From Barthelona sp. PCE (taxonomy: Eukaryota): a stretch of DNA of 64,000 nucleotides. Where the stretch lies: NCBI GenBank assembly GCA_040285745.1, contig JAUFOR010000002.1:682001-746000 (forward strand), in the 5' to 3' direction. The number at the start of each line of letters is the position of its first letter. The stretch's first letter is position 1. Below the pieces are notes generated by a model. That model saw only the letters and a program-made list of their open reading frames with translations. It was not told where the DNA came from and did not search any database. A program made the position numbers and the translations under genes. This document shows positions 14,007 to 48,714 of the stretch, one piece after another.

Positions 14007-16706
14007 TTATAGTTGAATATCTTGAGCATCAACGTAACGGTAAAAATCAAAACCCTTGTTGATGGTCAAGTTATAGACGGCACATTTCTCGACAATCTCA
14101 TCAATTACGCTCTCCACGTCCTCGCCCTCGAAAAACTGGAGACCGCGAAGCCAGCCAATTGCTCCAACAATCACTCCCTCGATTGCATAGGAAAGATTAA
14201 CTTGAAGCAACTTACTCGCCTCCATGTAATTTTGGAGTCGTTGATCGAGCCCAGCAAACATAGAACGCTTTGAATCCAGCTCTGTATCGTTGAATGGTTT
14301 GAACAAAAGCGCATTAGCGGTCTGAACCAAGTGGCTGCGGAAGAAAGCGTTATTAACGCGGTGACCAAATCTAATCGCCTGCATCACGTCGCCCATGAGC
14401 AAACACTGTTGTGAGAGCTCCAAATCAGTCGCGGTGACCTCTTGTTTATCTAAAACAATAGTGTTGGTGTGAGTGATTCCACCGAGCATCGTTCGCTTCA
14501 GCAAACCATCGGATATGAGCGTGTCGATTGCCTGGGACCATGAAAGCTCGTTCATGTCAGACAACGTAGATAGGAGGGCTGGGGTGATGTTTGAAAGGTA
14601 AGCCCGCAGACGATCTGTTATATCTCTTGCCAAGGAGTTAAGCCCGTTAACAACGTGCTGACCCGGTTCACTTAGCGCATCGTGCAGCTTAGAGGTGCTG
14701 TGGACCTTGAGCAACATAGAAATACACTGTGACAAGAGCTTAGGGGTAGCTCTTGCAACGCTCACTATAGGCTCGACGGCGACGGCGACAACCTGCATTT
14801 TATCAACGTGTGCGTTGATGGCGTCAAGAACGAGCTCGCCGTACAAGCCGGCCTCTCCATGGGCGACCAAACCTTTGAGAGCCTCGGCAACGACTGATGG
14901 CATATCGTCTCTGAGAAACACATGTGATGCGACTGCGGCAGCCATTCGGGCGCGCACAGCTTCGTCGCGGTGATTAAGAACAGACATAACGATTGAATCG
15001 TCAAGAAGAGAGGGAGGGCACTTCTGTAACAGAAGGACAAAATCCTCATCGCTAAGCTCCTGCAGAATAGAAACATCGTGTAGGACGACAGCAGCGGCGG
15101 CGTTGGGCTCTGGATGCTTATGCGCCAACAACCAGCAGTACTGCTTTGCAGTAAAACGATCATCATCGCTGATAAGAGTGCCCAGTCTGTGAACCATAGA
15201 CAAAACAGCAGGTCCATTGAGGAGGGCGAATACTGTATCGTGGGACAAGAAGAATGGCAGAAGGAGCTTGCAGGGAAGCGTGGATCTATCTAACAACAGG
15301 AAACATGTTGTGATCTCAACCATATCGACTTCGAGCTGAGACAAAGACTCAAAGATATGTGACAGGCCACGAGATGCTGCGACAGTGAGTTCATGGACGC
15401 TACGAACAGTGTTGCCGATTTCTGTCAAAAAAGTTGCAATGTTACCATGTGTCTTCATGACGATCGCAATGACCTCGTAGAATAGCTCAGTGTCTATGTA
15501 ACCGTGCAGAATTGCAACTGTGCATGCCCTTACCAGACAAACAGCTAGCTGGAAGGTAGGGGTGATGGCTTTATCGCCATAGATGAACGAACACGTTTCT
15601 CTCAGAAGGCTCACAATTTCCTGCTCTGTGGCGTCGCCCGACGGACCGTCAATGACAAACGAACGCATAGCGGTCTCTACCTTGGGGAGCAGGAACTTCT
15701 TGATACCGTGAGGACCAAGAACGGGGAGGAGTGCCTTGAGCAACGCTGTCATGTCGTAGTCAACCGTCACAAGAGCATGGAGGGACTCACTGTGAGGTAG
15801 ATACTCGAGACATGTCTGTAAACAGCGCATGGCTTCGATATCGTTGGCCTCAGTAAGGGTCGTCTCGTTTGTGACCAAAGAAACTGTAAAGAGTGGAGCG
15901 AGGTGTGCTGCACAGTGCTCAGTAAGCTTAAATGACTGGGAGAGCAACAAAAAAGCAGAAAAAGCATCGCAAAAAACAAGGGCTTTCTCCTTAGTGTGAG
16001 GGACCAATGAAACGATCTTGTTAACAACGCCTCTCTTGTGGGCGTGGGCAAGGAGCTCACCGATGATCTCAACGTCCTCTGTGTTCAAAAGCGCACGAAT
16101 GGGCTCACTAGACTCCAAGTCAAAAAACATGCCAAACAGTTGGTAGATCTTATCTCTCAACACTGAGCCCGACGGCGATTTCACCAGGAGCCCGATGAGG
16201 GAATCTATTGAAATTACAAGTGGTGTTTCGGTGTGGAGATTCCCCGATAAAGATGGTAAGTCAAAGATAAAGTGTTGGAGGCAGTTAATCATCTCCAGTA
16301 GGTTTTCGCGGCGGGAGTCGCTGAGATGAGGATGGAAAACACATGAAAAGAAAAGATGCATATCCTTTGTGAAGAAATTAATCACATTCTCAAATTCTGG
16401 CTTAGTTATGATCACAGAAATCTTTGGTGCATTGCGGAACATACGGAAAGACTTCTGAAAAAGTCTTAAAATAGAGCTAACAGTCTGTTCCTTGGCGTAA
16501 TGCGTAATGAACTCCAGGTTGAAAGACTGGACCAAATTCTCGTAGAACGAGATGATGACGGGGATAAACTCAACCAAGGGTAAGGTTCCTTGTGTAAAAG
16601 CTTTGCAGGCCTCATAGTAATTGTTAAAGATTTTCTCTGAAGCCTCACACTGCGCTACAAGGTCCTGAGACTGATATCCAACCGAGTCATCGGCAAAAAC
16701 TGACAT
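14007..16706 (-). CDS. Hypothetical ~900-aa helical (HEAT/ARM-like) protein
   Basis: Long uninterrupted Leu-rich amphipathic ORF. Likely start ATG 16706 (track extends to 16811 in AT-rich sequence). Family not recognised. Confidence 0.75.
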   Translation of the reverse strand: MSVFADDSVGYQSQDLVAQCEASEKIFNNYYEACKAFTQGTLPLVEFIPVIISFYENLVQSFNLEFITHYAKEQTVSSILRLFQKSFRMFRNAPKISVIITKPEFENVINFFTKDMHLFFSCVFHPHLSDSRRENLLEMINCLQHFIFDLPSLSGNLHTETPLVISIDSLIGLLVKSPSGSVLRDKIYQLFGMFFDLESSEPIRALLNTEDVEIIGELLAHAHKRGVVNKIVSLVPHTKEKALVFCDAFSAFLLLSQSFKLTEHCAAHLAPLFTVSLVTNETTLTEANDIEAMRCLQTCLEYLPHSESLHALVTVDYDMTALLKALLPVLGPHGIKKFLLPKVETAMRSFVIDGPSGDATEQEIVSLLRETCSFIYGDKAITPTFQLAVCLVRACTVAILHGYIDTELFYEVIAIVMKTHGNIATFLTEIGNTVRSVHELTVAASRGLSHIFESLSQLEVDMVEITTCFLLLDRSTLPCKLLLPFFLSHDTVFALLNGPAVLSMVHRLGTLISDDDRFTAKQYCWLLAHKHPEPNAAAAVVLHDVSILQELSDEDFVLLLQKCPPSLLDDSIVMSVLNHRDEAVRARMAAAVASHVFLRDDMPSVVAEALKGLVAHGEAGLYGELVLDAINAHVDKMQVVAVAVEPIVSVARATPKLLSQCISMLLKVHSTSKLHDALSEPGQHVVNGLNSLARDITDRLRAYLSNITPALLSTLSDMNELSWSQAIDTLISDGLLKRTMLGGITHTNTIVLDKQEVTATDLELSQQCLLMGDVMQAIRFGHRVNNAFFRSHLVQTANALLFKPFNDTELDSKRSMFAGLDQRLQNYMEASKLLQVNLSYAIEGVIVGAIGWLRGLQFFEGEDVESVIDEIVEKCAVYNLTINKGFDFYRYVDAQDIQL

Positions 16707-16977
16707 AAAATTAGGGATCGGAGTTTGTATGGGTAAAAAATGGTTATTCAACAATCTTTGTTTGACACAGGTTTGAAGCATATAAAATGTATCGCATGTG
16801 CTACTTACCATTCATTCTATATATACAATATGCTTTCAAACATCAAGAATGAGTTAAATAAAAGCCGTAATCTACCATATCTTAAAACCATCTAAGGTGA
16901 GTTGTCTGCATCTACCAAACCAGGTTATCTATTTAAGTCACAGAATTCTATCGTTTTATGAAGTAAACCCCCATATC

Positions 16978-22285: not shown

Positions 22286-22736
22286 AAATGTAATATTCTA
22301 ATTTTTAAGCTTGGATTGGAAAGATTTCAAGAAATGACTTTACCATGGCTGATTTCACTCGGGTCATGTTTACTGACAGATATCTAGTTGGATGGCGTGA
22401 ATAAGTTCCTAAGATCAAGGTCGGGGTAATTGAGATCCCACCCTAAAAAATTGTAAAAAAAGAGAAATCTGAAATGTACGATAAAGGAGGTAATTCGGAC
22501 AGCACATTCATGAGTCACAGATTCACTCTGCCATGAGTTCCGTCAACCACATGCTTCCATCATTCAACAATTCACTCTGAAAAAAGCGTTCTATCAGGAT
22601 TCGAATTGAATACCTTCGCTTTCAACCAATTTTCAAAAAAAACCATACCGATCCAGCTCTGACGAGAGAGAAATGACCTTTAAAAAAATAAGTACAGTAA
22701 GCACACTGTATAGTTGCAAAAGAAAATTTCAAAAAG

Positions 22737-22807
22737 TACACCCGGGGGGAATCGAACCCCCGGCACATGGATGGCAACCATGAGTTTTACCACTAAACTA
22801 CAGGCGT
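22737..22807 (-). tRNA. tRNA with GCC anticodon (Gly), atypical acceptor stem
   Basis: ACGCCTG TA GTTT AGTGGTA AAAC T CATGG TTGCCAT CCATG TGCC GGGGG TTCGATT CCCCC CGGGTGT A forms a full 71-nt cloverleaf, followed by a T5 Pol III terminator-like run. Confidence 0.95.
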
Positions 22808-23624
22808 GTACGGAAATGAACTATACATTCTTTTTAATGTTTAATTTACTTTGACATTTTTTTGAAGAAAATCAAGAGAATATTTTGTTAAGGTAAATTT
22901 GTATTTCAATAACATCTATGATGTTTTCAAAGGAGGTTCAGTTAAGGGCAAAATTTTATTCGGTACATTTAAATTTAAAAAAAAATTAGTGAAAAAAATC
23001 TTCATATTAAAGAAATTTTTGCTATTTAATTGAATAAATAAAAATAACTAACCTTAAAATAACTAAATACCCAAATAAAGATGAAATAAAATGAAATAGT
23101 GTTCATATTTTTCCATTATATAATAATTTTTTAAGCAGGCAAACATTGAAAAAGCAATTAAGTAATTTTGAGTCGAAAAGTAAATGTAACACGAATAAAA
23201 AATTACTTTATCACAGTTAATTATTGGAATATCAAAACAAATTTGAGTATAAAAAAATTTTGTTCATTTCCACAAAACTCTGATTAAAAGCTTTGTAAGA
23301 ATTTTTTTGCACGTTATTTGCGATATGTCGCCCACACGACTTTTCTTACAAATGTTGCAATATATCAACCAGATTCTTTTTTTTTTTAAGCAGTTTATGA
23401 TTCAAATGAAAGAAAAAATCTTTGATAATTTGCTTTTAACGAATATTATAAAAGAAAACATTATATTTTGCAACCATTTTGTGGAAGAGTCATATTGTAG
23501 ATCAAACAGGTTTGTGGAAACTCAATTTTTATTTAAATAGTTGTCAAACTCATTCATAAATGAAATAGAAACACCTATACATTATAAATTTATTCTTATA
23601 TAAAGGTAAAGCAGGATGTTATGA

Positions 23625-30893: not shown

Positions 30894-33800
30894 TTATACC
30901 CAAGATTTCCATCCCTCAAAGATGGTTGGGAGAATGGCACCATCACTGGCAAGATCAACAAGAACTTCTGCAATGTGGTTGCAGGACATTTGTTTTTGCA
31001 TCAGGTCCAGCTGATCCATGAGCGCAGGGATGCTGAACGTGTAGGGGTCAAAATCACCAAGGGCTGCCTTGTATAGGTTAACAAAACTGTCCCCACGAAT
31101 AGTGTTTTTCGATCCGTCCTCCGAAATGCCAAAGATACCCATCCAGAACATGCGGTCGTCCAGAATAAGTTTGTTCCACCTGTTGTCCAGCTTGAATGCT
31201 TTGATTCTGTTAATGTAATGCGTTTCAACGATCACAGGATGAACGCCTCTCATTTTCATATGGAAGACCTCTGCGTTTAAGTTGGTGAGTGTCTGGAATT
31301 GTTGTGCCTTACCTCCATCGATATTATCAAACGCAAGGGAACCAGAGTTGACGTTGAGACCGGTGATGTCCATCACCTTACTAAGCTTGGTTTTGATTGA
31401 CTCAAAGCAACTGTTGCGAACGAAGCAGTCAAATACACTGTTGATGAGTGTGCGATTACTCTGAAGCTTTTCAAACAAACTACCCTGTACTTCAACCATC
31501 AGCTCCTTTGTGCTATACGGCGCAGCCATCCCCTGCAGCATTGAAGTCAGGCGGAAGGGCACAAACTCGGGAACAGCGAGTCGGTACCGCATATCAAATG
31601 AATAGCCGAAATCAATCGGGCACGTCCGTCCTGTTGATGTGATGAGCGTGTTGTCGAGGTGGCGATCCGCTATGTTCAGTAAATATCCATACAAACAACT
31701 TGTCGAGTACGACTGGACGAAAAGCATACGCTCTGCAAAGAATTGGCGAACTGTCTGTGCCTTCTTGAGGTAGTAAGACCTTATGACGGTGCCGAACCTG
31801 GTGTTGACGAACTCCTCAAAGGCAGCACGGCGAGCAGCGGGCCCGACAGAGTGTAGTGTGACAGTATGAACATTGGGGTTAGGGGCGACATCGTCAACGT
31901 TGATATTATCAGCAGCCATTAGTAAATCCTGACGCCACTCGGAAAAATCAGTTTTGAGGTCGCTTAGCTGGTTTGACTTAACGAAACTCGACACAATCCC
32001 GCTAAAAGAAACACAGTCATCGACCCACTGGATAAAACCGACCTGATTTGTGAGAGGAACAACGTTATACGTCTCAACCCTTATGTTTTCTGGCACAAAG
32101 CTGTTGAACACATCAAACAACTGTTCTAAACGAGCATCCAGGCGCAGATCCTCAAAGTGTTTTGTCAGCAATCCCACCTTACGGTAGTCGGAAAGAACAA
32201 ATGTGATTTTGACAGGGCGCCTGATGGATGACTGCACAGCTACGTTTTGCTGGACCATTCGCACTGTTCTCTCTTTTGGAGGACCGTACTTAGCCTTATT
32301 AAAGACATCAACCACGTTCCACTCGGCGATATTCATTAGCTCAGGGCTCAACTGTGAAATCGAAGTTGTGGTCTCGGCTGGGAATTGTTTCCTAGAAAGA
32401 TCGCTCAAGCGCTGTGCAGATGTCCTTAGGCGATTGACGTGCTGTGCGAGAGGCTTGCTTCTCCACAGAACTACGTCGAACTTATCGTTGTCAACCTGTT
32501 TCCGGATGTAAGCGTTACACTTCTCTATCAATTCTAGAATGCCACCAATGATGGTGCGGAGAGGATCAATTATGGCACGGCTGACCATCCAATTCGCGCG
32601 CTGGGCACCAAAGACACTGGATAATCGCGATACATCGGGCTTAGGCTGGATAATCTCTTGATACATTGTCTGCACCAATTTACCCAAGTTCTGGATATCA
32701 TCGTAGTGCTTCAGCGCCTCCTTACCAAACTTAAACAGCTCAGAAAGACACCCCATGCAAAAAAGACCGGTATCGAGCAGGGCGAAACTGGCAAGTGTTA
32801 GATCTGATGTAACCTTGCCGCTCGCCCTGATGGTTGCAAGGAGCAGCCCGAGGTATGCCTGCTTCATAACAGTCTGACACAGATAAAGCTCTGTTGAGGA
32901 GAAGCAATCCCAGTTCTCATAAAGCGCTTTCAGTTCATCAATACTCTCACATTCGTTGACATACTGGTCTATAGCGGCCATATCGATGCCACATATGTAG
33001 TGAGGCGATGCCTCGAACTCAACGCCATCGAAAAACGGCTCCGTTACCTTGTACGACTGCCTAGTTCCGTTGATTGCGAATTGAACATGAACAGGGTATG
33101 TTTTGGCGACTTCTATGAGAATATCCACGAGGAATGTGCATATTAATGGGTTGGTGGAATGACTCACGATCTGAGAAAGCCACTGCAAGAAGAACCAATG
33201 TGGAATCTGAGTTGTGATTTTCCTCATCGACTGCACAATACTGTCGATCACAGCGCCTGCATCGTCCTGCTCCATGCGGCGGGTGCCTATCACGGCGTTT
33301 TCAAGAATGGAAAATAGTAACGGGAAGTGTGAGTGACCTTTAGTGTCTGCCGCGCACAAGGCGTTGCCGAACAAATCTAAAAGCATTGCCATGCTCTGCC
33401 CATCGAAGGTATCCTTAAGTGCATCATGTAACGCAGTGATTGCAATAAACTGATTCAACATAACGCCTTCGCCCTGGAGAGTAAGAATGGTTCTCTGCAG
33501 GTCTTCATTGGATTGCACCGACTGGAGCGTCGCCTCCACAAGCGCGTTGTGCGCAATCTGCTTAAGATACGGCTTTTCGGCGTTTTCGTATATGTGCTTG
33601 ATCATTTTGGAATTTTCAGAGCAGAGATCAAATTCGTGGTAATGAATGAGAGCAAGGCTCTTAAGCACGTCTGGGTAGTCAGCAAGAGACGTCTGAGACG
33701 CCTGTTGGATAAGGTTGAAAGCAAGATTCTGGTTTTTCGACTGAGTGCTCAACACCTGGAGTACTTCACTTCGCAGCGTGAAGTCGTCCACATGGTCAAC

Positions 33801-36800
33801 ATATGACTCCGTGGACAGCAGCATTGATCGAGCGTGTAACAGGAAGGAGAGCTGTTGTGGTGGTAATTTTGCTACCACAGAGTGGAATCTTTTCACTAGT
33901 GTTTCAACAGTACATGAACCGCGCTTTTGCTGCGAAAACAGTACGAGATCTGTCAGCAAAAGTGATGCTAGAGGACTGGTCCTGATTGTAGATACGATCT
34001 GAGGCTTTAACAAATTATTAACAGTTTGCTCCAACTTCACGTCTTGAGAGTCTAGTGCAGCAAAGAATCCCGTGAAATATGCTAAAGGCAGTCCAAAGCA
34101 CAGCTCACCACCATCAAGAGATGAGACGAATTGACGTAGCTCGTCGATTTTTTCCGAACACACAAGCGCCTGAAGCATGTGCTGTGTTCCGTATCCCTCG
34201 TGAAGGGCGTGTTGCGAAACGCTCTCTAGGTTATCCCATGAGCACATTTCAGAGCATGAACTAAGGAGGACGTGGGTGATCACCGACTTTTCAGTCGAAT
34301 TAGATTCGACGCTCTCAAGCAACTCGTTCAGTAAACGGATTGCATCGAGGTAAGAACCAGCACGGTACATGCGCACACCGCGCTGGATCTCAGAAAGAAG
34401 GCAGTCTTCCACGCGGTTGTTGAGCTGTCCGAATCCATGACGTACCAGAGGGACGATGAACTCTTCCGATGCTGTTGAGTTTCTAAATACATCAAACAGG
34501 CGTAATCTGTGCTCAAATACACAAATTATCTCAGACATCGAAGATGAAACTTTGTCCCTCATAATGTTATCAACAAAATGCAAGAATGAACTGACGTTTG
34601 TTTCGATAATATCAATATCAAGCACATCTCTGTCAAGCCCGCTTGTTGAAGCATTAACTGCAAGCTCGATGCGCTGCATAACAACACATAGAAGCTTAGA
34701 TCCTAAGTCAAAGGTAGTTGGCTGAGTGAGAATGGTTTCCAAGAGAGAAGTAAGTGCCGTGTTATGTGCCGACAATGTGTGGCGATTGACGCTTGTGATT
34801 ACCGACTCCGCGAGAGTAGAAACCCACGGCTCAAGCAAAACGTATAGAAGCTCAGCAGCAAAACTAGGATTGGTGAAACAAGCACCGAGCATGGGAATTA
34901 GCATCTGTGGCATAGAAAACGTGATCTTTGGCACATCTCTGGCTGCAACACGTCTCATATGACGCTTTCGTTTTTTCTTCATTTTGTGCATTCTTGAGAT
35001 GCTTTGTTTTCCTGAGTACCCTTTGCGTTCCTCAGGCATCGACATTTCCATCGAAAGCTCGTCGATCTGCTTCGTCACGTGCGCTGCATGGGTTTCCTGC
35101 GTTGCACGTCCCATCATTCCAAGCGTGTTCATGTTCTCGTCACCGAATAGGGATGCATCTAATGTCTGCGTGAAGGCACCTGTCTGTGTTGCTCTGACGT
35201 AACCAGCAGGCATGAATGTCGCAGTCGATAGTGAAAGATTAACATCTGAATCATCGGGTGCCAAAAACAAAAGGTCAGATGTGAAAGGTCGCTGCTCGTC
35301 AACGCACTTGAGAGTGCGCAAAAGCGTTGTAAGGAGGAATGAAAATGTTACAATGAGCTCGTCGGTTGCTGTGATGTCGTTGGTGAACAAACTCATGATT
35401 CCTGTCAACATTTCTGTAATTCTAACAACATCAAACGTTGTATCCAGGTTGAGCGGCGTTGTATCCCTGAATGCTCTCCAAAAGAAGGAAAGTATTTTCT
35501 TCTTGGTTCCCACAGAAGTTTTGTTACTGGTTCCCGCACACCCTTCTAGAAGGACATGCATCGTTTTTGTTTGTATTTCTTCATGGTGGACAAGCGAGAT
35601 TATAGCATTATACGCCTCAGTCTGTACAACTGGGCTCACAGAGGAGAAGGGAATAATTTTTTTATCAATAAACTCCAACAACGTTTCTGATGAAAGTACC
35701 TCCAACTCAAACAGTAGCGGAATACACTGACACAGAGTCTTCTGGTACGTCTCAGACTGGCGTTGAAGAAGCACAGGGAGACCGTACGTATAGTCGTCAA
35801 TGAAGCCACTAAAGGGAATGAGAGCTGTTTCATCAAGGCAGTTGTTATTCTTGCAGCACACCAGATGCTTAAGCACGTAGTACATAGTCTGAGCGGCTCG
35901 CGTCTGGAACGTAATTTGGTTTTTGTCGAGCATTGTGACAATGAACGGGAGTTGGCTGACGATTAGAGCAGGGAAGAATTTGGCGCATTCAAGCACAGCG
36001 GTTGTGTATGGGAGTTTGATGTCCCGTGTTAGAGCCTTTAATCCCTCGATATAGTTATCAACGAGCTGCAGATCGAAGAAATCTTTATCAATGATGATGA
36101 GCGCTGAGTCTACATGCGCAATCTCATCAAGCGAGAGCGTGTTCTCAATGTAAGAAGACAAGTAATAGTTCCTCAAAGCTAAGGCCATCGCACGGCTTAA
36201 TATACGCACAACAGGCGACTTCTTCGAGCGAGTCATCGAATTAACCAGAGCCTGTGCAAGCACAGCCGGCTGATAGTTATCAGTGAGCGTATCGTTGTGG
36301 TGCAGGAATCCGTGACGAAGAAGACTGGTTAGAATCACAGAACCCTTATCGCGGATGAACTCCCTATGCTCGGCAGTGTATCCGCGCTTCCTGTTCTCAA
36401 CGTCGAACAAAATCAGCGAATATACAACCTTAAGATTAGGGGTGAAGAAGTTGCGCACATGACCAAAAAGCGTGTGCACCAACTTCAAGTACCTGTCAGT
36501 GTGTTTGCTCTTGAATACGGCTTCCTTCGATAGGATCTCGACCAAGCGACGGAACAAAATTTCCAATTGGAAGGAGTCCTGTTTTGTAAAAAGTGTAGCA
36601 CCATCCTCTTCCTCTCCTGTATCAGCGCTATGCATCGTCTGTGTTTCGTGCGCCAGGGTATCGATGTAGTGCTCGTTAGGGGCAGCGGATGCTGTCTTTG
36701 TCTCTTTCTTTAGGTTATGCGACCAAAGGTTCAGTAACTTGATCGTATCAAATTGGATGTACGTAAAGCCGACGCGTAGCATCTGTAGCACCAGGTTAAA

Positions 36801-39800
36801 CTTCTCCAAGACGACAGGGGCCCACTGACGGGCCCACGGCATGAATTGAGATGGTCTGTTATGAAGCACACGAAGAATGAAAACAATTCCGCATAACGCA
36901 GAGCTATCAAGAGATTTGAAAATGTCCAAAAGACACGCCATGTACTCGGGCATAGGCGAGTCTACTGTGGCTCGGTTTGATATATCCTGATACATATCCA
37001 GAATCCCCAAGAGGTACTTCATCGAATCAAGTCTTGTAAAAGGATCGCCGCGAAGATTATTGGTGGTCTCGTCGAACGGAGACACATGCATAGTGCGACT
37101 GTATCGCTTCATCAAGTTCTCCATATCTTTTGGAGCATTTTGAGACGCATCTTCCACTGACAAGCCAAGCGAGAGCGAAGCTTCAATGGTATGCAGCAGT
37201 TGCGCCTCGCTTGCCGTCTTTGCTTCCTTGTTGATCGTGAATGTGCTCACGCTAATAACGCTATAGTCCTGACTTGTCTCTTTAAAATTACTGGTCTGGC
37301 TGTCGAAGTCAAAAGGCACAAACGGCGCAATAAAGAGCCTGGGGTCAACACGCCACTTGGCTTTGTTGACGAAAAACAGATACTCACCATACTTTGTTCG
37401 GAGCATGGCCTGGTTATCTGTAAAACGTGTGCGCAGTGAGGCTGCAAGTAACTGGACTGCAGCACTGGCAACGTATGCACCCGTGAGCCCCACAGCAGTC
37501 TTCTTCTGGGTGAGGTCCACTTCACTGCGCATGGTCCTCATCCTTTTGATTACCCAACCAGCGTATGGGTCTTTTCCGGGAGGCGCAGGACCCTTTCCAA
37601 GCTTGGGCACGACCTTGTATCTCCAGAAGTCGCATGGGATGCGTTCATACATACAAATTAAAATCTTCATATATATGTATCGACAGCCCATGGCTTGCTG
37701 ACCGTTTTCTGCGTTTGAGCTCTCAGGATCGAACTGAGCGAGATTGATAGACGTACCCTTGCTGAGTATTATGTGTTGCATCAGAATAGCAATGTGCTCA
37801 GCTAACTCTTGTAGAATCTCTTGGTCTATTTGTTCTAGGATTTTATAAAGCAGCTTTCCGATACGAATTGTGATACGAGCGTCATCTAGAGGCTCGTTGG
37901 AGTGGGATTCAAGGGCGATGTTGGTGAAATCCCGGATTAAGGTGAGGGTATCATCTAGTGTTTCGATTTTTGCACTAAATTTCCTGCCAAAACGATACAA
38001 AAGCGAAAACTGTGCCTCGGATGCCCATGCAAAATATCCAATGAACTCCTTGATTATTGAAGGAGACTTCGATTCGCTCCATAACTTGGAGATTGATAAC
38101 ACAGCGTCAACCAACTTCACCGAGTTTTGGGGTCTTATACAGTCTGAAAGGCAGAAGTAAACGCCCAACTTGTGTGTGAAACGCTTCAGTTTCTCTCCAT
38201 CAAAGTGACTTTTTGCGAGTTTAAGAGTGATATTAACAAAATCATCTAATCTTGCATTTTCGATTAAGCCATCCTCCAACATTGCAATACGGCCAGTAAC
38301 GCTCACAATGGCCTCTTGAAGCTCGATGTCGTCACCATACTCAAGAAGGGCGTTGATGACGCGGACGCCGACACCATCAGGTATGGAGAAATCTGATTCT
38401 GTCAGATACTGCCCTACAACAGCTACAACGTGTGGAACAGGTGACCCACGCTGTTTCTGATCCTTACAGTAGTGTAGAATGCTCGCAACGATGTTGACAG
38501 ATTGTGAATTGGAGAGCAGAAGTTGTAAGGAACCTGTTGTCATTAAAACACTCAGGCCTGGGTATCGTTCCATATAGAACTCGGAGTTGTGCGTAGTGAC
38601 AAAGACGTCAGGGGCCAGCGCAACGTACAGCTTAAGATACATTAGTTGATCGCGTAGTCCCATGCTTTGAAGCTGATCGAAGTTTGCGTACTTGGCCAAC
38701 CTTGTTTCGGGGAGTTCACCCTTTGTGAACTCAACGAGCTTCAGGATGAACCTCACATGTTTTCCGTCCTTGACGTTGAAAGGAACCCTGTTTAGAACGT
38801 TGAAAATAACTTCAGCTGTTGAATCCTTCAGCACTGTTGCAAAAGATAGGAGATCAGCTGTGTTGAGGTCCAGCACGGCATTGACGACTGCGAGCACTAG
38901 CTCATCATCCTCTACAAAGAGCGTGCGTATTAAAGAAGAACATTTTGCAAAAACAGGGCTGTAGTGCTTTGCCAAAGATGGCGTTTCAACCACAGCATAC
39001 AGCAGCTGCTCACCAATATCTCTGAACGGGACCATTGCTTTTTCACCAATGATAGGATCGACAAAAGGGAGCACATGCGCAATATACAATGGCTCTGCCT
39101 CATGAATGATGGATGCTATTTCGGGGTTGGTGAGAACAGACAGACGTTCTGCACGAGGAATCACCTCCCTCAGCACAAGGTATACGTACGTGTTTTGAAT
39201 GCGCTGTGTGATTTTGAACACTTTTACCAAGAATGCGTGCAGCTGTTCCTCAGAAAAAGTATTGAAGTAATGACGGATGATTCTGCCACACTTACGTATG
39301 GGCCATAGATACTGTCGACACATTGTGCGTACCATATCACTGTCACCGCCAACGTGTCTTTCAGGCAAAAGTAAATGAAGACAAGATTCGGCAATTGGAA
39401 GAACATATTCAACCGAGAGACGTTCTTCCTCTCGGAGCATTCTGAATATCTGGGAGAAAAGTGTGACTCCTGCAGAGTGGTTGAGCCCTCTTATGAGCTC
39501 AATGATGCGTTGAACAAAATCACTTATTCCCAGCATCGAATACGCACTCTCTGAAGCGTTGTTTATCTGCTTGAGACTGAACCCAAACAGCACGCTGAGG
39601 ATCTGAGACGCGACTCCCAAGGTGTTAGGGGATTCCAGCAACATGAAAAGTGTGTTTAATAGAATCTTACTTTCCTCACATCTCTTCTTGTGCAACGTGA
39701 TACTCTTCTGGTTCATAATGACAACCCACCTGATGATAGATGTTAACAAATTGAACGTACCCTGTTCTTTATCAAGACTAGCATGTCGTACAAGCATAGG

Positions 39801-42773
39801 GATGAATACATCTGCAAAGGCCTGGAATCGCTTATGCTCTTTTGAATTGTTAACGTCATATCCACCAATGAACAGCTTTGTCAGCTCTAACACTGCTTGG
39901 AAGGTCGCAGTATGGTGCTCAGTACCCTCTAAAGCAAAAGAAAGACTTGGTACAAGTCTTCCAAAGTCAAAACTGATTGCTTCTGATTTGCCTCCCTTTA
40001 GTGTGAATGGGAGCACCAAATTCGACACGGAGTAGGCAGTGGTGCTCAGTTCAATATGTGGGAGGCTTCCAATGATAAGAATGCATTGCTGAGCTAGAAT
40101 TGACTCCTGACTGATACGACTGGCCTTAATTTTGTGTCTCATTCGTGTAGCGCTAACTTCTGCATCCACATTATTGTCCTCTCCATCGAAGAAAGTCATT
40201 GGATCATCTACGAATTCAATTAGCGATGAAATCAAATCATAGATCAACTCATAAAGCGGTCTGAAAAGATCAACAACAAGAGAGAACCGTGAGGGACCTA
40301 AACTATACCGAGCATGTACGTAGTCCTGGATGAACACCAAGAGCTTCGGCAGGAGGAACACAAGGTCGTTTCTTCCGCTTAGTTTGATGGCAATGATGAA
40401 TGCTTCAATGTGGAAGTCGATGGGCAAGAGAAACGCTGGCATACATCCTACAAAACGACCTGCGATCGTGATGACGTCGACATCCAGCCCGTCCAAGCGC
40501 TGAACAAGTGACGTGCAGAACTGTTCCAGATAGTCCACCGTTGAATCATCAAACTTACGCACACCATGTGGTTGGGAGGCGGTTGCGGGGAGGGCTTCCA
40601 GTTGTGTGAGCGAGGAGATGGCAGACTCATCGACGTCGAATGGCAAGTTGTGAATAAGCAACGATTGCATTGATGAGAACGTTTCTTTTGCCGGAGATAT
40701 GTTTCTAAAAACACGTTGTATGACTGCGCCATCAAAGTTAACCGTGAAGAAAGATCTGCTCAAAGACAGATCAAGCAAGGAAAGGAGGATGCTAAAAATA
40801 TGCTTGCAGTGCATCGTCTCGAGTCCTTTTTTCAAAAAAAACGTCAGTAACGATTCGCAGAAGACACAGAGCGAGTTACGGACGCTCTCGCTTTCCACAA
40901 GATGTTCCTTAGTGCCACGCTGTATTAGCCGTTTGCTGAACTGTTGCAGGAAAAGGGAAAGCTGGCATATCCTTGTCCAATCAAGGGCGTTGACGTCGTC
41001 CAGTTCAGTGAAGTCCTCGTCTAGGTTCAAGTTATCAACCAAATCGATAATACACTCGGAAAGCAGTGTAAAAATTTTATCTACAGTCTCACTATTCAGG
41101 ACGATATACTCGCTCATCAGAATGTCTGCAAATGTCTGCCCCATCGACTTTTGGTTCTTGAAGGACGATTCATCTGTCTGTATGCAACCGTAAAGGATGT
41201 TGAAGACGTTTCTAAAGACTATCGTCGAGTTATTCTCCCTAGTTAGTGCTCTGAAAAAGACAGAAAGAGAAGTGCCAAACTTCGTACGGTAGCTGTTGGG
41301 GAGATCAAACATCACTGATACCACCTTTTCAACAAAATAGGTCATCAAGTTAAGCAATCCATCTCTGTAGTTGTCATTGATGTTTGTGAAGGAGTACGCA
41401 ATAACATCAATGCCCGCGGTGATCGTGTTCATGCTTGAGAAATCTATACCCCATGCTGACGGTCTTGGGTACTCCGATGTCGTCACTGTTGTTTTCAAGT
41501 AACTCAGCGTTTCCTCAACTTCAGTGACGACAGACGCATGCTTTGTGTCGAAGTATTCGATGACTTCGCTCCTATCACTCTGAAAAACAATAGAGCTCTC
41601 ACCAATATCCGACCACATCAAGTATGCTCCCGAAAGCCATCCAATCGATTGGCGGACAAGGCGCTTCAGGTGCGAGCCTATCTCATTGTTGATGAGCAGT
41701 CGTGATCGATGTCTGTGGACGAGGGTGAAAACGTTGAAATGGGTTAGAAGGATGCTTGATATATCATTCTCCTCATCATCATCAAGTTCAGGGATCTCGC
41801 ATAGGCGCGAACCGACGCTCGCAAGCAGAGATGCGAACGCTGCTTGTGCTGCCTTTCGCAGATCGGTGTTCGAATGCTCACAAAAAGTCTCAACTTTTTC
41901 CAGGAAGGAGTTCATATTGGGCAACAATACAGGCATCAGAAGATCTGCATGAACGGTTAACAGCTGCATTGCTGCACCTTGATGTGAATAAGAAGATGCT
42001 TTCCCCACATCACTCATGATGGTCAACACATATTTGACGATTTCCTTTAGTTCCTTCGTTTCCCGTATCTGGACGTCGTAGTCGTATGCGCACTTGGTGT
42101 ACAGATCCGACGCAACTGTTAGAATAGAAGCCAAACAGTTGAAGCAGCCTGACATAACCGAAGCACTGTATTTGGCCTCATTCATGATACTATCTCTCAG
42201 TTTAAGAACACAATTGCTCAGGAGATCTGATAGATTGAACTTTGTTTGCAAACTGGGGTAATGTTTGAACAATACTCCTATCAATTTGTATGATTGTGCT
42301 AAAATCGTTTTTTGGGTGGTATCAATGAGAATAAACTGATAAATCATCTGGCACAGGTCGGTGATGTTTGGTATACTGCAATTTAACTGAACACAATAGT
42401 TCAAACTAAGTATTGCACGCTCTTTCACCTTTGCTGTTGATGAATTCTGGATAAGCATTACCATGAGGTCTGTGAGGTGGTCTAGATAACTGTCTAGAAA
42501 GGTGACCTGCTCACTACTTGACTTCTCAAGATACAGAACTATGCTTTTCAACAAAATGGGAATATGACCTGCAGTTATGTTCTCAAAGAAGGGAAAAACT
42601 GAAGGGAGCCCGAACATGTATGTGCCAACCTGTCTTAGAACATCGTTGGAACACTTTGAAATATTGGTTGTGATGTGCTGCAAAAGATTATCAGATAAGG
42701 TTTCCAATTCCACGGAGATCTGGCAATCACCCATTCGTGTAAGAATATCTTCAACACGCGAAACTAATGACAT
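30894..42773 (-). CDS. PRKDC: DNA-dependent protein kinase catalytic subunit (PIKK), 3959 aa, single exon
   Basis: SIRRPVKI..EDLRLDARLEQLF, IADRHLDN, IDFGYSF..LAVPEFVPFRLT, FATC end LVDLASDGAILPTIFEGWKSWV, and internal RATQ..FTQ..RATQ resembling the autophosphorylation cluster. Confidence 0.9.
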   Translation of the reverse strand: MSLVSRVEDILTRMGDCQISVELETLSDNLLQHITTNISKCSNDVLRQVGTYMFGLPSVFPFFENITAGHIPILLKSIVLYLEKSSSEQVTFLDSYLDHLTDLMVMLIQNSSTAKVKERAILSLNYCVQLNCSIPNITDLCQMIYQFILIDTTQKTILAQSYKLIGVLFKHYPSLQTKFNLSDLLSNCVLKLRDSIMNEAKYSASVMSGCFNCLASILTVASDLYTKCAYDYDVQIRETKELKEIVKYVLTIMSDVGKASSYSHQGAAMQLLTVHADLLMPVLLPNMNSFLEKVETFCEHSNTDLRKAAQAAFASLLASVGSRLCEIPELDDDEENDISSILLTHFNVFTLVHRHRSRLLINNEIGSHLKRLVRQSIGWLSGAYLMWSDIGESSIVFQSDRSEVIEYFDTKHASVVTEVEETLSYLKTTVTTSEYPRPSAWGIDFSSMNTITAGIDVIAYSFTNINDNYRDGLLNLMTYFVEKVVSVMFDLPNSYRTKFGTSLSVFFRALTRENNSTIVFRNVFNILYGCIQTDESSFKNQKSMGQTFADILMSEYIVLNSETVDKIFTLLSECIIDLVDNLNLDEDFTELDDVNALDWTRICQLSLFLQQFSKRLIQRGTKEHLVESESVRNSLCVFCESLLTFFLKKGLETMHCKHIFSILLSLLDLSLSRSFFTVNFDGAVIQRVFRNISPAKETFSSMQSLLIHNLPFDVDESAISSLTQLEALPATASQPHGVRKFDDSTVDYLEQFCTSLVQRLDGLDVDVITIAGRFVGCMPAFLLPIDFHIEAFIIAIKLSGRNDLVFLLPKLLVFIQDYVHARYSLGPSRFSLVVDLFRPLYELIYDLISSLIEFVDDPMTFFDGEDNNVDAEVSATRMRHKIKASRISQESILAQQCILIIGSLPHIELSTTAYSVSNLVLPFTLKGGKSEAISFDFGRLVPSLSFALEGTEHHTATFQAVLELTKLFIGGYDVNNSKEHKRFQAFADVFIPMLVRHASLDKEQGTFNLLTSIIRWVVIMNQKSITLHKKRCEESKILLNTLFMLLESPNTLGVASQILSVLFGFSLKQINNASESAYSMLGISDFVQRIIELIRGLNHSAGVTLFSQIFRMLREEERLSVEYVLPIAESCLHLLLPERHVGGDSDMVRTMCRQYLWPIRKCGRIIRHYFNTFSEEQLHAFLVKVFKITQRIQNTYVYLVLREVIPRAERLSVLTNPEIASIIHEAEPLYIAHVLPFVDPIIGEKAMVPFRDIGEQLLYAVVETPSLAKHYSPVFAKCSSLIRTLFVEDDELVLAVVNAVLDLNTADLLSFATVLKDSTAEVIFNVLNRVPFNVKDGKHVRFILKLVEFTKGELPETRLAKYANFDQLQSMGLRDQLMYLKLYVALAPDVFVTTHNSEFYMERYPGLSVLMTTGSLQLLLSNSQSVNIVASILHYCKDQKQRGSPVPHVVAVVGQYLTESDFSIPDGVGVRVINALLEYGDDIELQEAIVSVTGRIAMLEDGLIENARLDDFVNITLKLAKSHFDGEKLKRFTHKLGVYFCLSDCIRPQNSVKLVDAVLSISKLWSESKSPSIIKEFIGYFAWASEAQFSLLYRFGRKFSAKIETLDDTLTLIRDFTNIALESHSNEPLDDARITIRIGKLLYKILEQIDQEILQELAEHIAILMQHIILSKGTSINLAQFDPESSNAENGQQAMGCRYIYMKILICMYERIPCDFWRYKVVPKLGKGPAPPGKDPYAGWVIKRMRTMRSEVDLTQKKTAVGLTGAYVASAAVQLLAASLRTRFTDNQAMLRTKYGEYLFFVNKAKWRVDPRLFIAPFVPFDFDSQTSNFKETSQDYSVISVSTFTINKEAKTASEAQLLHTIEASLSLGLSVEDASQNAPKDMENLMKRYSRTMHVSPFDETTNNLRGDPFTRLDSMKYLLGILDMYQDISNRATVDSPMPEYMACLLDIFKSLDSSALCGIVFILRVLHNRPSQFMPWARQWAPVVLEKFNLVLQMLRVGFTYIQFDTIKLLNLWSHNLKKETKTASAAPNEHYIDTLAHETQTMHSADTGEEEDGATLFTKQDSFQLEILFRRLVEILSKEAVFKSKHTDRYLKLVHTLFGHVRNFFTPNLKVVYSLILFDVENRKRGYTAEHREFIRDKGSVILTSLLRHGFLHHNDTLTDNYQPAVLAQALVNSMTRSKKSPVVRILSRAMALALRNYYLSSYIENTLSLDEIAHVDSALIIIDKDFFDLQLVDNYIEGLKALTRDIKLPYTTAVLECAKFFPALIVSQLPFIVTMLDKNQITFQTRAAQTMYYVLKHLVCCKNNNCLDETALIPFSGFIDDYTYGLPVLLQRQSETYQKTLCQCIPLLFELEVLSSETLLEFIDKKIIPFSSVSPVVQTEAYNAIISLVHHEEIQTKTMHVLLEGCAGTSNKTSVGTKKKILSFFWRAFRDTTPLNLDTTFDVVRITEMLTGIMSLFTNDITATDELIVTFSFLLTTLLRTLKCVDEQRPFTSDLLFLAPDDSDVNLSLSTATFMPAGYVRATQTGAFTQTLDASLFGDENMNTLGMMGRATQETHAAHVTKQIDELSMEMSMPEERKGYSGKQSISRMHKMKKKRKRHMRRVAARDVPKITFSMPQMLIPMLGACFTNPSFAAELLYVLLEPWVSTLAESVITSVNRHTLSAHNTALTSLLETILTQPTTFDLGSKLLCVVMQRIELAVNASTSGLDRDVLDIDIIETNVSSFLHFVDNIMRDKVSSSMSEIICVFEHRLRLFDVFRNSTASEEFIVPLVRHGFGQLNNRVEDCLLSEIQRGVRMYRAGSYLDAIRLLNELLESVESNSTEKSVITHVLLSSCSEMCSWDNLESVSQHALHEGYGTQHMLQALVCSEKIDELRQFVSSLDGGELCFGLPLAYFTGFFAALDSQDVKLEQTVNNLLKPQIVSTIRTSPLASLLLTDLVLFSQQKRGSCTVETLVKRFHSVVAKLPPQQLSFLLHARSMLLSTESYVDHVDDFTLRSEVLQVLSTQSKNQNLAFNLIQQASQTSLADYPDVLKSLALIHYHEFDLCSENSKMIKHIYENAEKPYLKQIAHNALVEATLQSVQSNEDLQRTILTLQGEGVMLNQFIAITALHDALKDTFDGQSMAMLLDLFGNALCAADTKGHSHFPLLFSILENAVIGTRRMEQDDAGAVIDSIVQSMRKITTQIPHWFFLQWLSQIVSHSTNPLICTFLVDILIEVAKTYPVHVQFAINGTRQSYKVTEPFFDGVEFEASPHYICGIDMAAIDQYVNECESIDELKALYENWDCFSSTELYLCQTVMKQAYLGLLLATIRASGKVTSDLTLASFALLDTGLFCMGCLSELFKFGKEALKHYDDIQNLGKLVQTMYQEIIQPKPDVSRLSSVFGAQRANWMVSRAIIDPLRTIIGGILELIEKCNAYIRKQVDNDKFDVVLWRSKPLAQHVNRLRTSAQRLSDLSRKQFPAETTTSISQLSPELMNIAEWNVVDVFNKAKYGPPKERTVRMVQQNVAVQSSIRRPVKITFVLSDYRKVGLLTKHFEDLRLDARLEQLFDVFNSFVPENIRVETYNVVPLTNQVGFIQWVDDCVSFSGIVSSFVKSNQLSDLKTDFSEWRQDLLMAADNINVDDVAPNPNVHTVTLHSVGPAARRAAFEEFVNTRFGTVIRSYYLKKAQTVRQFFAERMLFVQSYSTSCLYGYLLNIADRHLDNTLITSTGRTCPIDFGYSFDMRYRLAVPEFVPFRLTSMLQGMAAPYSTKELMVEVQGSLFEKLQSNRTLINSVFDCFVRNSCFESIKTKLSKVMDITGLNVNSGSLAFDNIDGGKAQQFQTLTNLNAEVFHMKMRGVHPVIVETHYINRIKAFKLDNRWNKLILDDRMFWMGIFGISEDGSKNTIRGDSFVNLYKAALGDFDPYTFSIPALMDQLDLMQKQMSCNHIAEVLVDLASDGAILPTIFEGWKSWV

Positions 42774-47070: not shown

Positions 47071-48714
47071 TTACAAACCAGCAAGACCAGTGGCGTTCTG
47101 TTTCTGGTGATTCATACGACCAGAGATACCACCGGCAATAATTTCATCACAAGCAATCAAGTTAGCAAGGATACTGGCAGCGGACTGAATCAAATGGCGT
47201 TTAACCTTGTAGTTATCAAAGATACCGAGCAGAGTGGGGTGCATAGCCTTACCTGTATCAAGATCGACACCAACGGCGTGTTCACCACCTAACTCGTCTT
47301 GAATTGCAATGATGGTATCCTGCGCGTCCAGACCTGCGTTCTTGGCAAGAGTCTTGGGGATTACAAGCAGAGCCTTAGCAAAGGCCTCGACACCGAGACG
47401 ACGACGACCCTTGATAGTACGAGAGAAGTCCATGAGCTCACGGTGAGCAAAGATCTCAAATGCACCGGCACCGGGGACAAGCATGTTGTCATCGTAGGTG
47501 TTCTTGACGGCACGGAGACCATCACGGATAGCGTCCTTAGTACGAGCAATGGTGTAGTTAGTTGAACCACGGATGAGGATGGTAACTGACTGTGTCTTGG
47601 GACAACCTTCAACAAAGGTGTACTTCTCCTCACCGAGAGCAACTTCACGAATACGATCAGCGAAACCGAGATCGGCCTCAGTGACATTATCGAGAGAACG
47701 GAGAGCGGTACCGCCAACTGAGCGCACGAAACGCTCGAGGTTACGGCGCTTGGCACGACGGAGAGCAAGGATACCCTCATCAGCAAGCATCTGGAGAGAG
47801 ACGGAATCAACACCGGCCATGTTGAAGATGACAAATCCGTGATTCTCACGCTCGCCGGAACAGATCTCACGCTTGAGAGCAATGATTTTTCTGACACGAT
47901 CGTCAATGATCTTACGCTCAGCACGGATGAGCTCATCACGCTTCTCAGCAGTCTTGTAAACCATAGAAGAGTTGATAGTGGTCTTCTCGTACTCCAGAGA
48001 GACGTTCATGAAGAGAACATGACAGTTCTCGAGCTCAGAAGGCATACCAGGGTGACGGGAACCGTGATCAAGAACAAGGCCCTTCACCAGGACGGTATCG
48101 TTGGCGGTACGGTGCTTCATGTGCATCCTCTCAACCATGTGAAGATCAATCATATCGTCACGCTTAATGTAATTGACAGCATCAACGACGATCTCAGAGA
48201 GCTGATCGGCAAGTTCGTTGTCAACCTTTGTACGGATACAGGTACGGGCAACCTTGATGAGGTTCTCACGGGAAGTGACGTCCTCCTTGACGCTGAAGTC
48301 CTTGAGAAGTTCAAAAGTCTTCTTCTTTGCGATTTCCATTCCATCTGAAATAATACGGGGGTGAATTCCCTCCATGTGAAGCAACTGAGCCTCCTTCATG
48401 AGCTCACCGATAAGGACAATGAGAGAGGTAGTTCCATCACCTGTGAATTCGTCTTGGGATGTAGCAGCACGTGCAATGATTTGAGCAGTGGGAAGTTGGA
48501 TTTGCATCTCGTGCAACAGACAGGCACCGTCCTTGGTGATTCTGATCTCGTTACCACCTGAAACAAGCATCTTGAGAGTACCGCGGGGACCCAAGTTAGT
48601 TTTTAAAACTTCTTGCAGACCTCTAGCACCGGCGATGATGACACCCATGGCGTCAGCGCGCTTGACGACCTCAGAGTAAGGGTTTAAAGCTTGAACAGCA
48701 GCAGCAGTTGACAT
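47071..48714 (-). CDS. CCT6: CCT/TRiC chaperonin subunit zeta
   Basis: TNLGPRGTLKMLV, TGDGTTS, GLVLDHGSRHP, NVSLEYEK, LALRRAKRRNLER, DAIRDGLRAVKN. Confidence 0.97.
   Translation of the reverse strand: MSTAAAVQALNPYSEVVKRADAMGVIIAGARGLQEVLKTNLGPRGTLKMLVSGGNEIRITKDGACLLHEMQIQLPTAQIIARAATSQDEFTGDGTTSLIVLIGELMKEAQLLHMEGIHPRIISDGMEIAKKKTFELLKDFSVKEDVTSRENLIKVARTCIRTKVDNELADQLSEIVVDAVNYIKRDDMIDLHMVERMHMKHRTANDTVLVKGLVLDHGSRHPGMPSELENCHVLFMNVSLEYEKTTINSSMVYKTAEKRDELIRAERKIIDDRVRKIIALKREICSGERENHGFVIFNMAGVDSVSLQMLADEGILALRRAKRRNLERFVRSVGGTALRSLDNVTEADLGFADRIREVALGEEKYTFVEGCPKTQSVTILIRGSTNYTIARTKDAIRDGLRAVKNTYDDNMLVPGAGAFEIFAHRELMDFSRTIKGRRRLGVEAFAKALLVIPKTLAKNAGLDAQDTIIAIQDELGGEHAVGVDLDTGKAMHPTLLGIFDNYKVKRHLIQSAASILANLIACDEIIAGGISGRMNHQKQNATGLAGL

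Follow-up and report, generated by a model that had tools for sequence, protein, structure and literature searches.

Which amino acid is delivered by a tRNA whose anticodon reads glycine codons and whose acceptor stem carries the base pair that marks alanine tRNAs? This question is raised by a gene in a 64,000-nt stretch of contig JAUFOR010000002.1 of Barthelona sp. PCE (positions 682,001 to 746,000 of the forward strand, referred to as the window in the following), where a tRNA-Gly with the anticodon GCC and the acceptor pair G3.U70 is encoded on the minus strand at window positions 22737-22807. With moderate confidence we interpret it as a working nuclear glycine tRNA of the RNA polymerase III type that is also exposed to alanyl-tRNA synthetase (AlaRS). 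Such a tRNA would be charged mostly with glycine by glycyl-tRNA synthetase (GlyRS) and would give rise to at most a low level of alanine at GGC and GGU codons (GGY).

The gene was recognized by two programs. ARAGORN reported a single tRNA in the 64-kb window, a tRNA-Gly with the anticodon gcc at 22736-22807 on the minus strand, and the Rfam family RF00005 matched 22737-22807 of the same strand over its full length (model positions 1-71 of 71) with 64.4 bits as compared to a gathering score of 29. The E-value of this match was 8.8e-14 in a search of 501 nt and 1.1e-11 in a search of the whole window, in which it was the sole Rfam family match. Thus, the tRNA call of the first-pass annotation, which had been made from the sequence alone, is confirmed, and its description of the acceptor stem, A73, the GCC anticodon, the intact cloverleaf and the T-run is correct in every base; only the location on the minus strand had been omitted. 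The gene contains the following features:

22737-22807, minus strand: tRNA-Gly(GCC) gene, 71 nt, standard positions 1-73 (ARAGORN, Rfam RF00005 and sequence reading)
22801-22807, minus strand: 5' strand of the acceptor stem, A1 C2 G3 C4 C5 U6 G7, with A1 at 22807 and G3 at 22805 (sequence reading and paired columns of the Rfam alignment)
22738-22744, minus strand: 3' strand of the acceptor stem, C66 G67 G68 G69 U70 G71 U72, with C66 at 22744, U70 at 22740 and U72 at 22738 (sequence reading and Rfam alignment)
22737-22737, minus strand: discriminator A73 (sequence reading; last position of the Rfam model)
22773-22775, minus strand: anticodon G34 C35 C36, which reads GGC and GGU (ARAGORN, position 33 of the match; ggc on the plus strand)
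22790-22800, minus strand: A-box-like internal promoter element TAGTTTAGTGG, tRNA positions 8-19 (sequence reading)
22748-22758, minus strand: B box GGTTCGATTCC in the T arm, which matches the consensus exactly, as no other site of the window does
22731-22735, minus strand: TTTTT run that begins 2 nt past A73, likely the RNA polymerase III terminator

Read on the minus strand, the acceptor stem consists of the pairs A1-U72, C2-G71, G3.U70, C4-G69, C5-G68, U6.G67 and G7-C66. It is joined by a D stem of G10-C25, U11-A24, U12-A23 and U13-A22 with the D loop AGUGGUA, an anticodon stem CAUGG/CCAUG with the loop UUGCCAU, a 4-nt variable region UGCC and a T stem GGGGG/CCCCC with the T loop UUCGAUU. 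The tertiary positions, which belong to the invariant positions of tRNAs (U8, A14, G18 G19, U33, G53 U54 U55 C56, A58 and C61), are all present. Judged by the A-box and B-box consensus sequences, the gene appears to be organized as a type 2 polymerase III gene, with the A-box-like element, the exact B box and the T run all in place. In the minimum free energy (MFE) fold, the acceptor, anticodon and T stems were recovered and the D stem was absent; the fold was only slightly better than those of shuffled sequences, with a z-score of -1.70 and 9 of 200 shuffles folding equally well or better. We took the covariance model, and not the single-strand MFE, as the relevant test of structure, and the MFE was given no weight against it.

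The four leader bases together with A1 and C2 read GTACAC, the exact complement of the segment from G69 to the first trailer base (GTGTAC; 22733-22811, minus strand), and the precursor could form an alternative 6-bp helix that is shifted by two from the acceptor register. As an alternative acceptor register, this 6-nt palindrome (leader and positions 1-2 with 69 to +1) was rejected because it does not extend to a 7-bp stem. The strand of the tRNA also contains, about 90 nt upstream of it, a weak match to the C/D-box snoRNA-like family RF00528 (22897-22974, minus strand; 20.4 bits as compared to a gathering score of 48, E = 0.37). This match lacks a clear C box and is probably due to chance. 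Weak Rfam matches near the tRNA (snoRNA-like, plastid untranslated region motifs, tmRNA) scored far under their gathering scores and were treated as chance.

The body of the tRNA is of the glycine type, with 1:72 and 3:70 as the pairs that do not conform to the glycine identity set. For eukaryotes, this set is given in the part of a review that deals with glycine as A/U73, G1-C72, C2-G71, G3-C70, C35, C36 and the triple (G10:Y25):G45 (PMC9976931). The anticodon elements C35 and C36, the pair C2-G71 and the discriminator A73 are present here, as is the triple, with G10-C25 and with a G that is second among the four bases of the variable region, to which we ourselves assigned position 45. In place of G1-C72 the tRNA has A1-U72, and in place of G3-C70 (yeast) or A3:U70 (human) it has G3.U70. 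Thus, G3 is kept and U70 is as in the human state, each half of the 3:70 pair having a precedent and the pair as such having none.

On the alanine side, G3.U70 is described as the major AlaRS determinant and as the only one listed for eukaryotes (PMC9976931), and it is found in our tRNA. The minor determinants of bacteria are A73, G2-C71, G4-C69 and G20; A73 is present, 2:71 and 4:69 are C-G pairs, and position 20 is a U. The anticodon is not NGC on an alanine-type body but GCC, which reads glycine codons. By 2:71, 4:69, position 20 and the anticodon, the tRNA is not an alanine tRNA. Since AlaRS is blind to the anticodon, however, GCC excludes the name tRNA-Ala and not charging by AlaRS. A protective role of C2-G71, which had been proposed to weaken alanylation, is improbable: of plant tRNA-Phe provided with G3.U70 and human tRNA-Gly variants, both of which presumably carry C2-G71, the former is reported to be an efficient AlaRS substrate and the latter are reported to mistranslate. 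The first-pass annotation had also named G3.U70 as the major AlaRS determinant and had stated that AlaRS does not read the anticodon, and both statements are borne out by the review cited above, according to which G3.U70 with A73 is the mark of alanine (PMC9976931). Its view of G1-C72 as a GlyRS element stands for bacterial GlyRS but not for yeast, where the second and third pairs are said in the same source to matter more (PMC9976931).

The meaning of the GGY codons was deduced from three proteins encoded in the window, which were aligned with their homologues: the DNA primase small subunit (119 homologues), CCT-zeta (119) and glycogen branching enzyme (GBE, 150). At the 48 columns that are glycine in at least 90% of the homologues, the window genes have GGT 30 times, GGC 6 times, GGA 7 times, GGG twice and a non-glycine codon 3 times (36 GGY and 9 GGR). 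Where alanine is present in at least 90% of the homologues (32 columns), 25 GCN codons, a single GGT and 6 other codons were found. The glycines of the kinesin P-loop GATGSGKT are encoded by GGT, GGT and GGA, the use of GGT for conserved glycine in this loop having been pointed out before. GGY is glycine in these genes, and a reassignment of GGY to alanine, regarded as unlikely from the start, is excluded by the codons at the conserved columns and in the P-loop.

Codons that are ambiguous or have been reassigned are avoided at invariant positions in other lineages, and the same would be expected of GGY at invariant glycines if much alanine were delivered by its decoder. Within the genes compared here, no avoidance of GGY at conserved glycines was seen: the share of GGY at conserved as compared to variable columns was 11/17 versus 11/25 for primase and GBE together, and 25/28 versus 8/9 for CCT-zeta. 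This argues against more than a low level of alanine insertion. A pooled enrichment of GGY at conserved glycines (36/45 versus 19/34, p = 0.027) is a between-gene effect that vanishes within genes, and it was not used. In 18 open reading frames (ORFs) with 13,328 codons, GGT (244) and GGC (120) account for 364 of the 576 glycine codons, and in CCT-zeta GGT is strongly preferred (35/42). The share of 364/576 implies a high demand on tRNA-Gly(GCC) and would make heavy insertion of alanine costly. Codon usage thus appears to bound the net alanine error to a low level.

In CCT-zeta (47071-48714, minus strand), residue 528 is encoded by GGT where 119 of 119 homologues have alanine. The protein has glycine at 4 of 16 substituted alanine-consensus columns, as compared to 0-3 in its homologues. 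Although suggestive in view of this tRNA, these numbers are too small to interpret, and an excess of glycine at such columns was rejected as a signal.

Furthermore, the acceptor stem was compared to those of other tRNA genes of the same build. For this purpose, a fixed-length pattern was derived from our tRNA; it specified C2, G3 and G71, base 70 and the three loops (D, anticodon and T), and all other positions were N. With U70, it gave no stretch in 185,579 prokaryotic species genomes and none in the IMG/VR viral contigs; with C70, it gave at least 119 stretches in the prokaryotic species genomes and 30 in the IMG/VR viral contigs. From the C70 loci, a set of 150 comparator genes (90 distinct sequences) was taken among the matches listed, to which all of the following counts refer. 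These comparators are prokaryotic and viral, and their 2:71 and 3:70 pairs were fixed by the pattern, all 150 having G3-C70 by design. The 1:72 pair is G-C in 149 of the 150, G.T in one and A-U in none, and at the discriminator position 102 genes have T, 47 have A and one has G. A G5.T68 wobble is present in 17 of the 89 comparators with G5, and two G.U pairs occur in the stem of only 2 of the 150. G.U pairs at 3:70 (0/150, this position being fixed by the pattern) and at 5:68 (17/89) differ in frequency with a Fisher p of 1.8e-8. As judged from prokaryotic and viral genes, tRNAs of this build appear to tolerate G.U in the stem but not at 3:70.

From the comparator consensus our gene departs at four positions of the stem, all towards A/U, with A in place of G1, U in place of C72 and C70 and possibly U in place of C6. 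A metagenome scan for A1 C2 G3 ... U70 G71 U72 A73 in this architecture, run without the C70 control, returned no stretch, and none was returned in a metagenome scan for the anticodon arm of this tRNA. In metazoans, G3oU70 is attached to alanine alone, and A1-U72 is found in initiator Met and, in mammals, also in Leu-UAA, as stated by Westhof et al. (PMC9023262). With canonical tRNA-Gly(GCC) of the cytosolic and archaeal type, the tRNA shares the anticodon loop UUGCCAU, C2-G71, A73, the short D loop AGUGGUA, the 4-nt variable region and the G-C-rich T stem. The comparators differ from it in that they have no A-U at 1:72 and have, by design, G3-C70 at 3:70.

Glycine tRNAs with G3:U70 are already known in nature, as human alleles. 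Six human tRNA-Gly variants are described in which a change of position 3 creates G3:U70 and for which alanine at glycine codons is predicted; they lie in high-confidence genes and have allele frequencies of about 1-5% (Berg et al., PMC6779403). The human reference tRNA-Gly has A3:U70, and A3G variants are reported to misincorporate alanine at glycine codons in mammalian cells (PMC11212642). With these variants (tRNA-Gly-CCC-1-1 and tRNA-Gly-GCC-1-5) our gene shares a natural glycine anticodon and body with G3:U70, and by its sequence it would belong with them. The human variants are, however, minority alleles (about 1-5%) in large multi-copy families whose reference is A3:U70, whereas our gene has it in the assembled reference sequence of a distant protist, accompanied by A1-U72 and another wobble, U6.G67. 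Neither A1-U72 nor a second wobble pair is described for such tRNAs in the passages of these papers that deal with them, and limited keyword searches of the open-access literature, supplements excluded, retrieved no description of a glycine tRNA with G3.U70 as the fixed state of a reference genome. By analogy to the human A3G variants, a mistranslating potential of the gene is plausible.

Transplanted into other tRNAs, G3.U70 is reported to make them accept alanine in bacteria, yeast and plants as well as in human cells (PMC9976931, PMC5389508, PMC11212642). Plant tRNA-Phe provided with this pair is described as an efficient AlaRS substrate (PMC9976931). In the SUF9 and SUF2 suppressors of yeast, a single change (C70U) turns G3-C70 of tRNA-Pro into G3:U70, AlaRS charges the mutant tRNA-Pro, and alanine is inserted at its own codons; in vitro, tRNA-Pro with G3:U70 accepts alanine in place of proline (PMC5389508). 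These suppressors were selected in the laboratory and have lost proline acceptance in vitro, whereas the GlyRS determinants of our tRNA (anticodon, 2:71 and 73) remain. A natural and fixed non-alanine tRNA that is alanylated by AlaRS via a G.U pair within its acceptor stem is vertebrate tRNA-Thr with G4.U69, as summarized in the review (PMC9976931). It differs in that the pair is at 4:69 and that the error is cleared by trans-editing by ThrRS and by the animal-specific deacylase ATD (PMC9976931). For Ala-tRNA-Gly, no editing route turned up in the literature passages on such tRNAs. GlyRS is not known to have an editing domain.

Alanine at glycine codons also results from tRNA-Ala with an altered anticodon, because AlaRS ignores the anticodon. 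Reported examples are human tRNA-Ala-AGC-6-1 G35C and yeast tRNA-Ala with the GCC(Gly) anticodon, the latter being one of those that impair growth most in a set of 60 anticodon variants (PMC10543346). In these tRNAs an alanine body carries an altered anticodon, whereas in our case a glycine body carries an altered acceptor stem, so that GlyRS can compete for the tRNA. The pair is, moreover, read by deacylases. DTD is reported to be more than 10-fold more active on Gly-tRNA-Gly with G3-U70, and tRNA-Gly of E. coli with this pair could be obtained in its glycine-charged form (PMC5409826); the AlaRS editing domain and AlaXp-M/L are described as picking their substrates via G3:U70 (PMC11295145).

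Based on these data, we favour a glycine tRNA with a partial second identity. Its acceptor stem would have drifted towards A/U, with A1-U72 as a compensated change and G3.U70 and U6.G67 as wobble pairs. As A1-U72 needs two pair-keeping changes, selection for pairing probably persisted, which speaks against decay. Lying one substitution away from the G3-C70 of the yeast type as well as from the A3-U70 of the human type, G3.U70 would be an intermediate between the two, and lineages that shift between these states would have to cross G3.U70 or a mismatch. Recognition by GlyRS would persist via C35, C36, C2-G71 and A73. U70 is presumably compatible with eukaryotic GlyRS, because human tRNA-Gly has A3:U70, and the preparation of E. 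coli G3-U70 tRNA-Gly as Gly-tRNA-Gly likewise suggests that GlyRS tolerates it. At the same time, G3.U70 and A73 would expose the tRNA to AlaRS, and some alanylation would be expected; its glycine-charged form would be exposed to the deacylases guided by G3.U70 (AlaRS editing domain, AlaXp and DTD), and some deacylation would be expected as well. The outcome would differ both from a reassigned codon and from a tRNA dedicated to alanine.

Several points weigh against this interpretation. The codon test rests on three genes; it excludes heavy ambiguity and has little power against an error of a few per cent. The third pair is reported to be a determinant for yeast GlyRS (PMC9976931), so that U70 may weaken glycylation, and yeast tRNA-Pro with G3:U70 was an acceptor for alanine only in vitro (PMC5389508), so that a full identity switch of the gene is possible. 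A1-U72 might block AlaRS altogether, as G1.U72 blocks the AlaRS of E. coli, and there would then be no charging with alanine. Finally, the gene could be a minor or silent copy of tRNA-Gly(GCC).

Two of these points lead to rival explanations. It could be the normal, perhaps the only, tRNA-Gly(GCC) type of the organism, on which AlaRS and the deacylases guided by G3.U70 are inactive, with no mistranslation as the consequence; either A1-U72 or the stem context would act as an antideterminant, or AlaRS would read additional features, and the alanine rule would be locally rewired. Such a long-term function is in line with the compensated A1-U72 and the high model score, and neither the conserved glycines, at which GGY is not avoided, nor CCT-zeta with its preference for GGT points to a penalty on these codons. 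A pair at 1:72 can be an AlaRS antideterminant, as described for C. elegans mitochondrial tRNA-Ala, in which G1.U72 blocks E. coli AlaRS, and AlaRSs are reported to vary in how G.U is read (PMC9976931). The source is also a very divergent organism, with a best non-self identity of 35% for primase and 57% for CCT-zeta. However, G3.U70 acts as an alanine mark in every cytosolic system tested according to these sources (PMC9976931, PMC11212642), and our literature search found no eukaryotic data on A1-U72 with AlaRS. We consider this explanation possible but doubtful. Just as the human A3G alleles at 1-5% lie in multi-copy families (PMC6779403, PMC11212642), the gene could alternatively be a mutated paralogue or allele among canonical tRNA-Gly(GCC) genes, weak or silent, which contributes little or nothing to decoding or adds a small alanine background at GGY. 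The four departures of the stem towards A/U and its two wobbles, two G.U pairs being so rare among the comparators, would fit such a copy, and the heavy demand on GGY decoding suggests more than one gene copy. Against this, the gene shows no decay, with 64.4 bits and with the invariant positions, the B box and the terminator intact, a compensated A1-U72 would not be expected in a decaying copy, and only this one tRNA, with no canonical copy beside it, was seen in the window. On balance, a minor copy seems unlikely.

A far stronger claim would be that of a programmed or adaptive mistranslator, or of a full switch to alanine identity, in which the tRNA is mostly charged with alanine and diversifies the proteome at GGY. 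The alanine-only charging of yeast tRNA-Pro with G3:U70 in vitro (PMC5389508) and GGT at residue 528 of CCT-zeta, where all 119 homologues have alanine, could be taken in its favour. GGY is, however, found at 36 of the 48 conserved glycine columns (with 9 GGR and 3 non-glycine codons) without any avoidance, and at only one of the 32 conserved alanine columns. Alanine at GGY is reported to be among the most harmful substitutions in yeast (PMC10543346), the body and the anticodon of the tRNA retain GlyRS determinants, and glycine at 4 of 16 CCT-zeta substitutions is a small number, alanine to glycine being a common change. This makes a mistranslator of this kind very improbable. The remaining explanation, an error of sequencing or assembly at base 70 or 3 that conceals a true G3-C70, we regard as more improbable still. 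It is true that U70 comes after runs of C and G, but the neighbouring departures are coherent, A1-U72 requires two matching changes, and the register of the cloverleaf is intact, homopolymer runs included. Moreover, the gene sits in a contig of 2.13 Mb, and a lone substitution error exactly at base 70 would be unlikely.

The window around the tRNA gene is gene-dense, with long uninterrupted ORFs on both strands, from which the genome looks intron-poor. The window encodes a kinesin motor, CCDC113/96 and p25-alpha, all linked to cilia or microtubules, in addition to the DNA primase small subunit, CCT-zeta, glycogen branching enzyme, KRR1, a Brix protein, endonuclease V, a proteasome subunit and a PUF protein. 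The best full-length matches of GBE have about 40-50% identity, and the distant matches of primase and CCT-zeta are spread over fungi, animals, plants and protists. The source would thus seem to be a eukaryote that branches deeply, is probably flagellated and has a compact genome; no close relative of it is present in the databases searched. An uninterrupted ORF of 3959 aa (30894-42773, minus strand) matches the Pfam families PF00454, PF20500 and PF08163, which we take to be PI3/PI4-kinase and DNA-PKcs domains. In a word-based search over its whole length, it found itself alone among 2965 candidates at E <= 1e-50 and thus added no alignment to the codon comparison; it probably encodes a very divergent DNA-PKcs-like protein. 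For three further ORFs no Pfam family was found at E <= 0.001, namely 14007-16811 (minus strand, 934 aa), 50683-52863 (plus strand, 726 aa) and 59222-64000 (plus strand, more than 1592 aa, open at the window end).

Overall, the G3.U70 pair is the textbook case in which one base pair decides the amino acid of a tRNA, and it is also reported to guide the stripping of glycine from alanine tRNAs by the AlaRS editing domain, AlaXp and DTD (PMC5409826, PMC11295145). A glycine tRNA with G3.U70 is chemically the species that these deacylases destroy and is, in addition, likely to be alanylated; human tRNAs of this kind are described only as minority alleles. We hold it to be improbable, but of consequence if true, that every GGY decoder of this deep-branching flagellate carries G3.U70 and A73, with the alanine mark fixed in its cytosolic glycine tRNA. 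In this case, either A1-U72 would be a natural antideterminant that protects the tRNA from AlaRS and from the deacylases (AlaRS editing domain, AlaXp and DTD), or, at nearly two of every three glycine codons, the organism would have a statistical glycine/alanine proteome. If the gene is one odd copy among normal ones, it would extend the human observation to a protist and be of modest interest. If it is the normal GGY decoder of the lineage, it would represent a natural experiment on how context, namely A1-U72, overrides the alanine rule, or else a gauge of the glycine-to-alanine error that a free-living eukaryote may tolerate.

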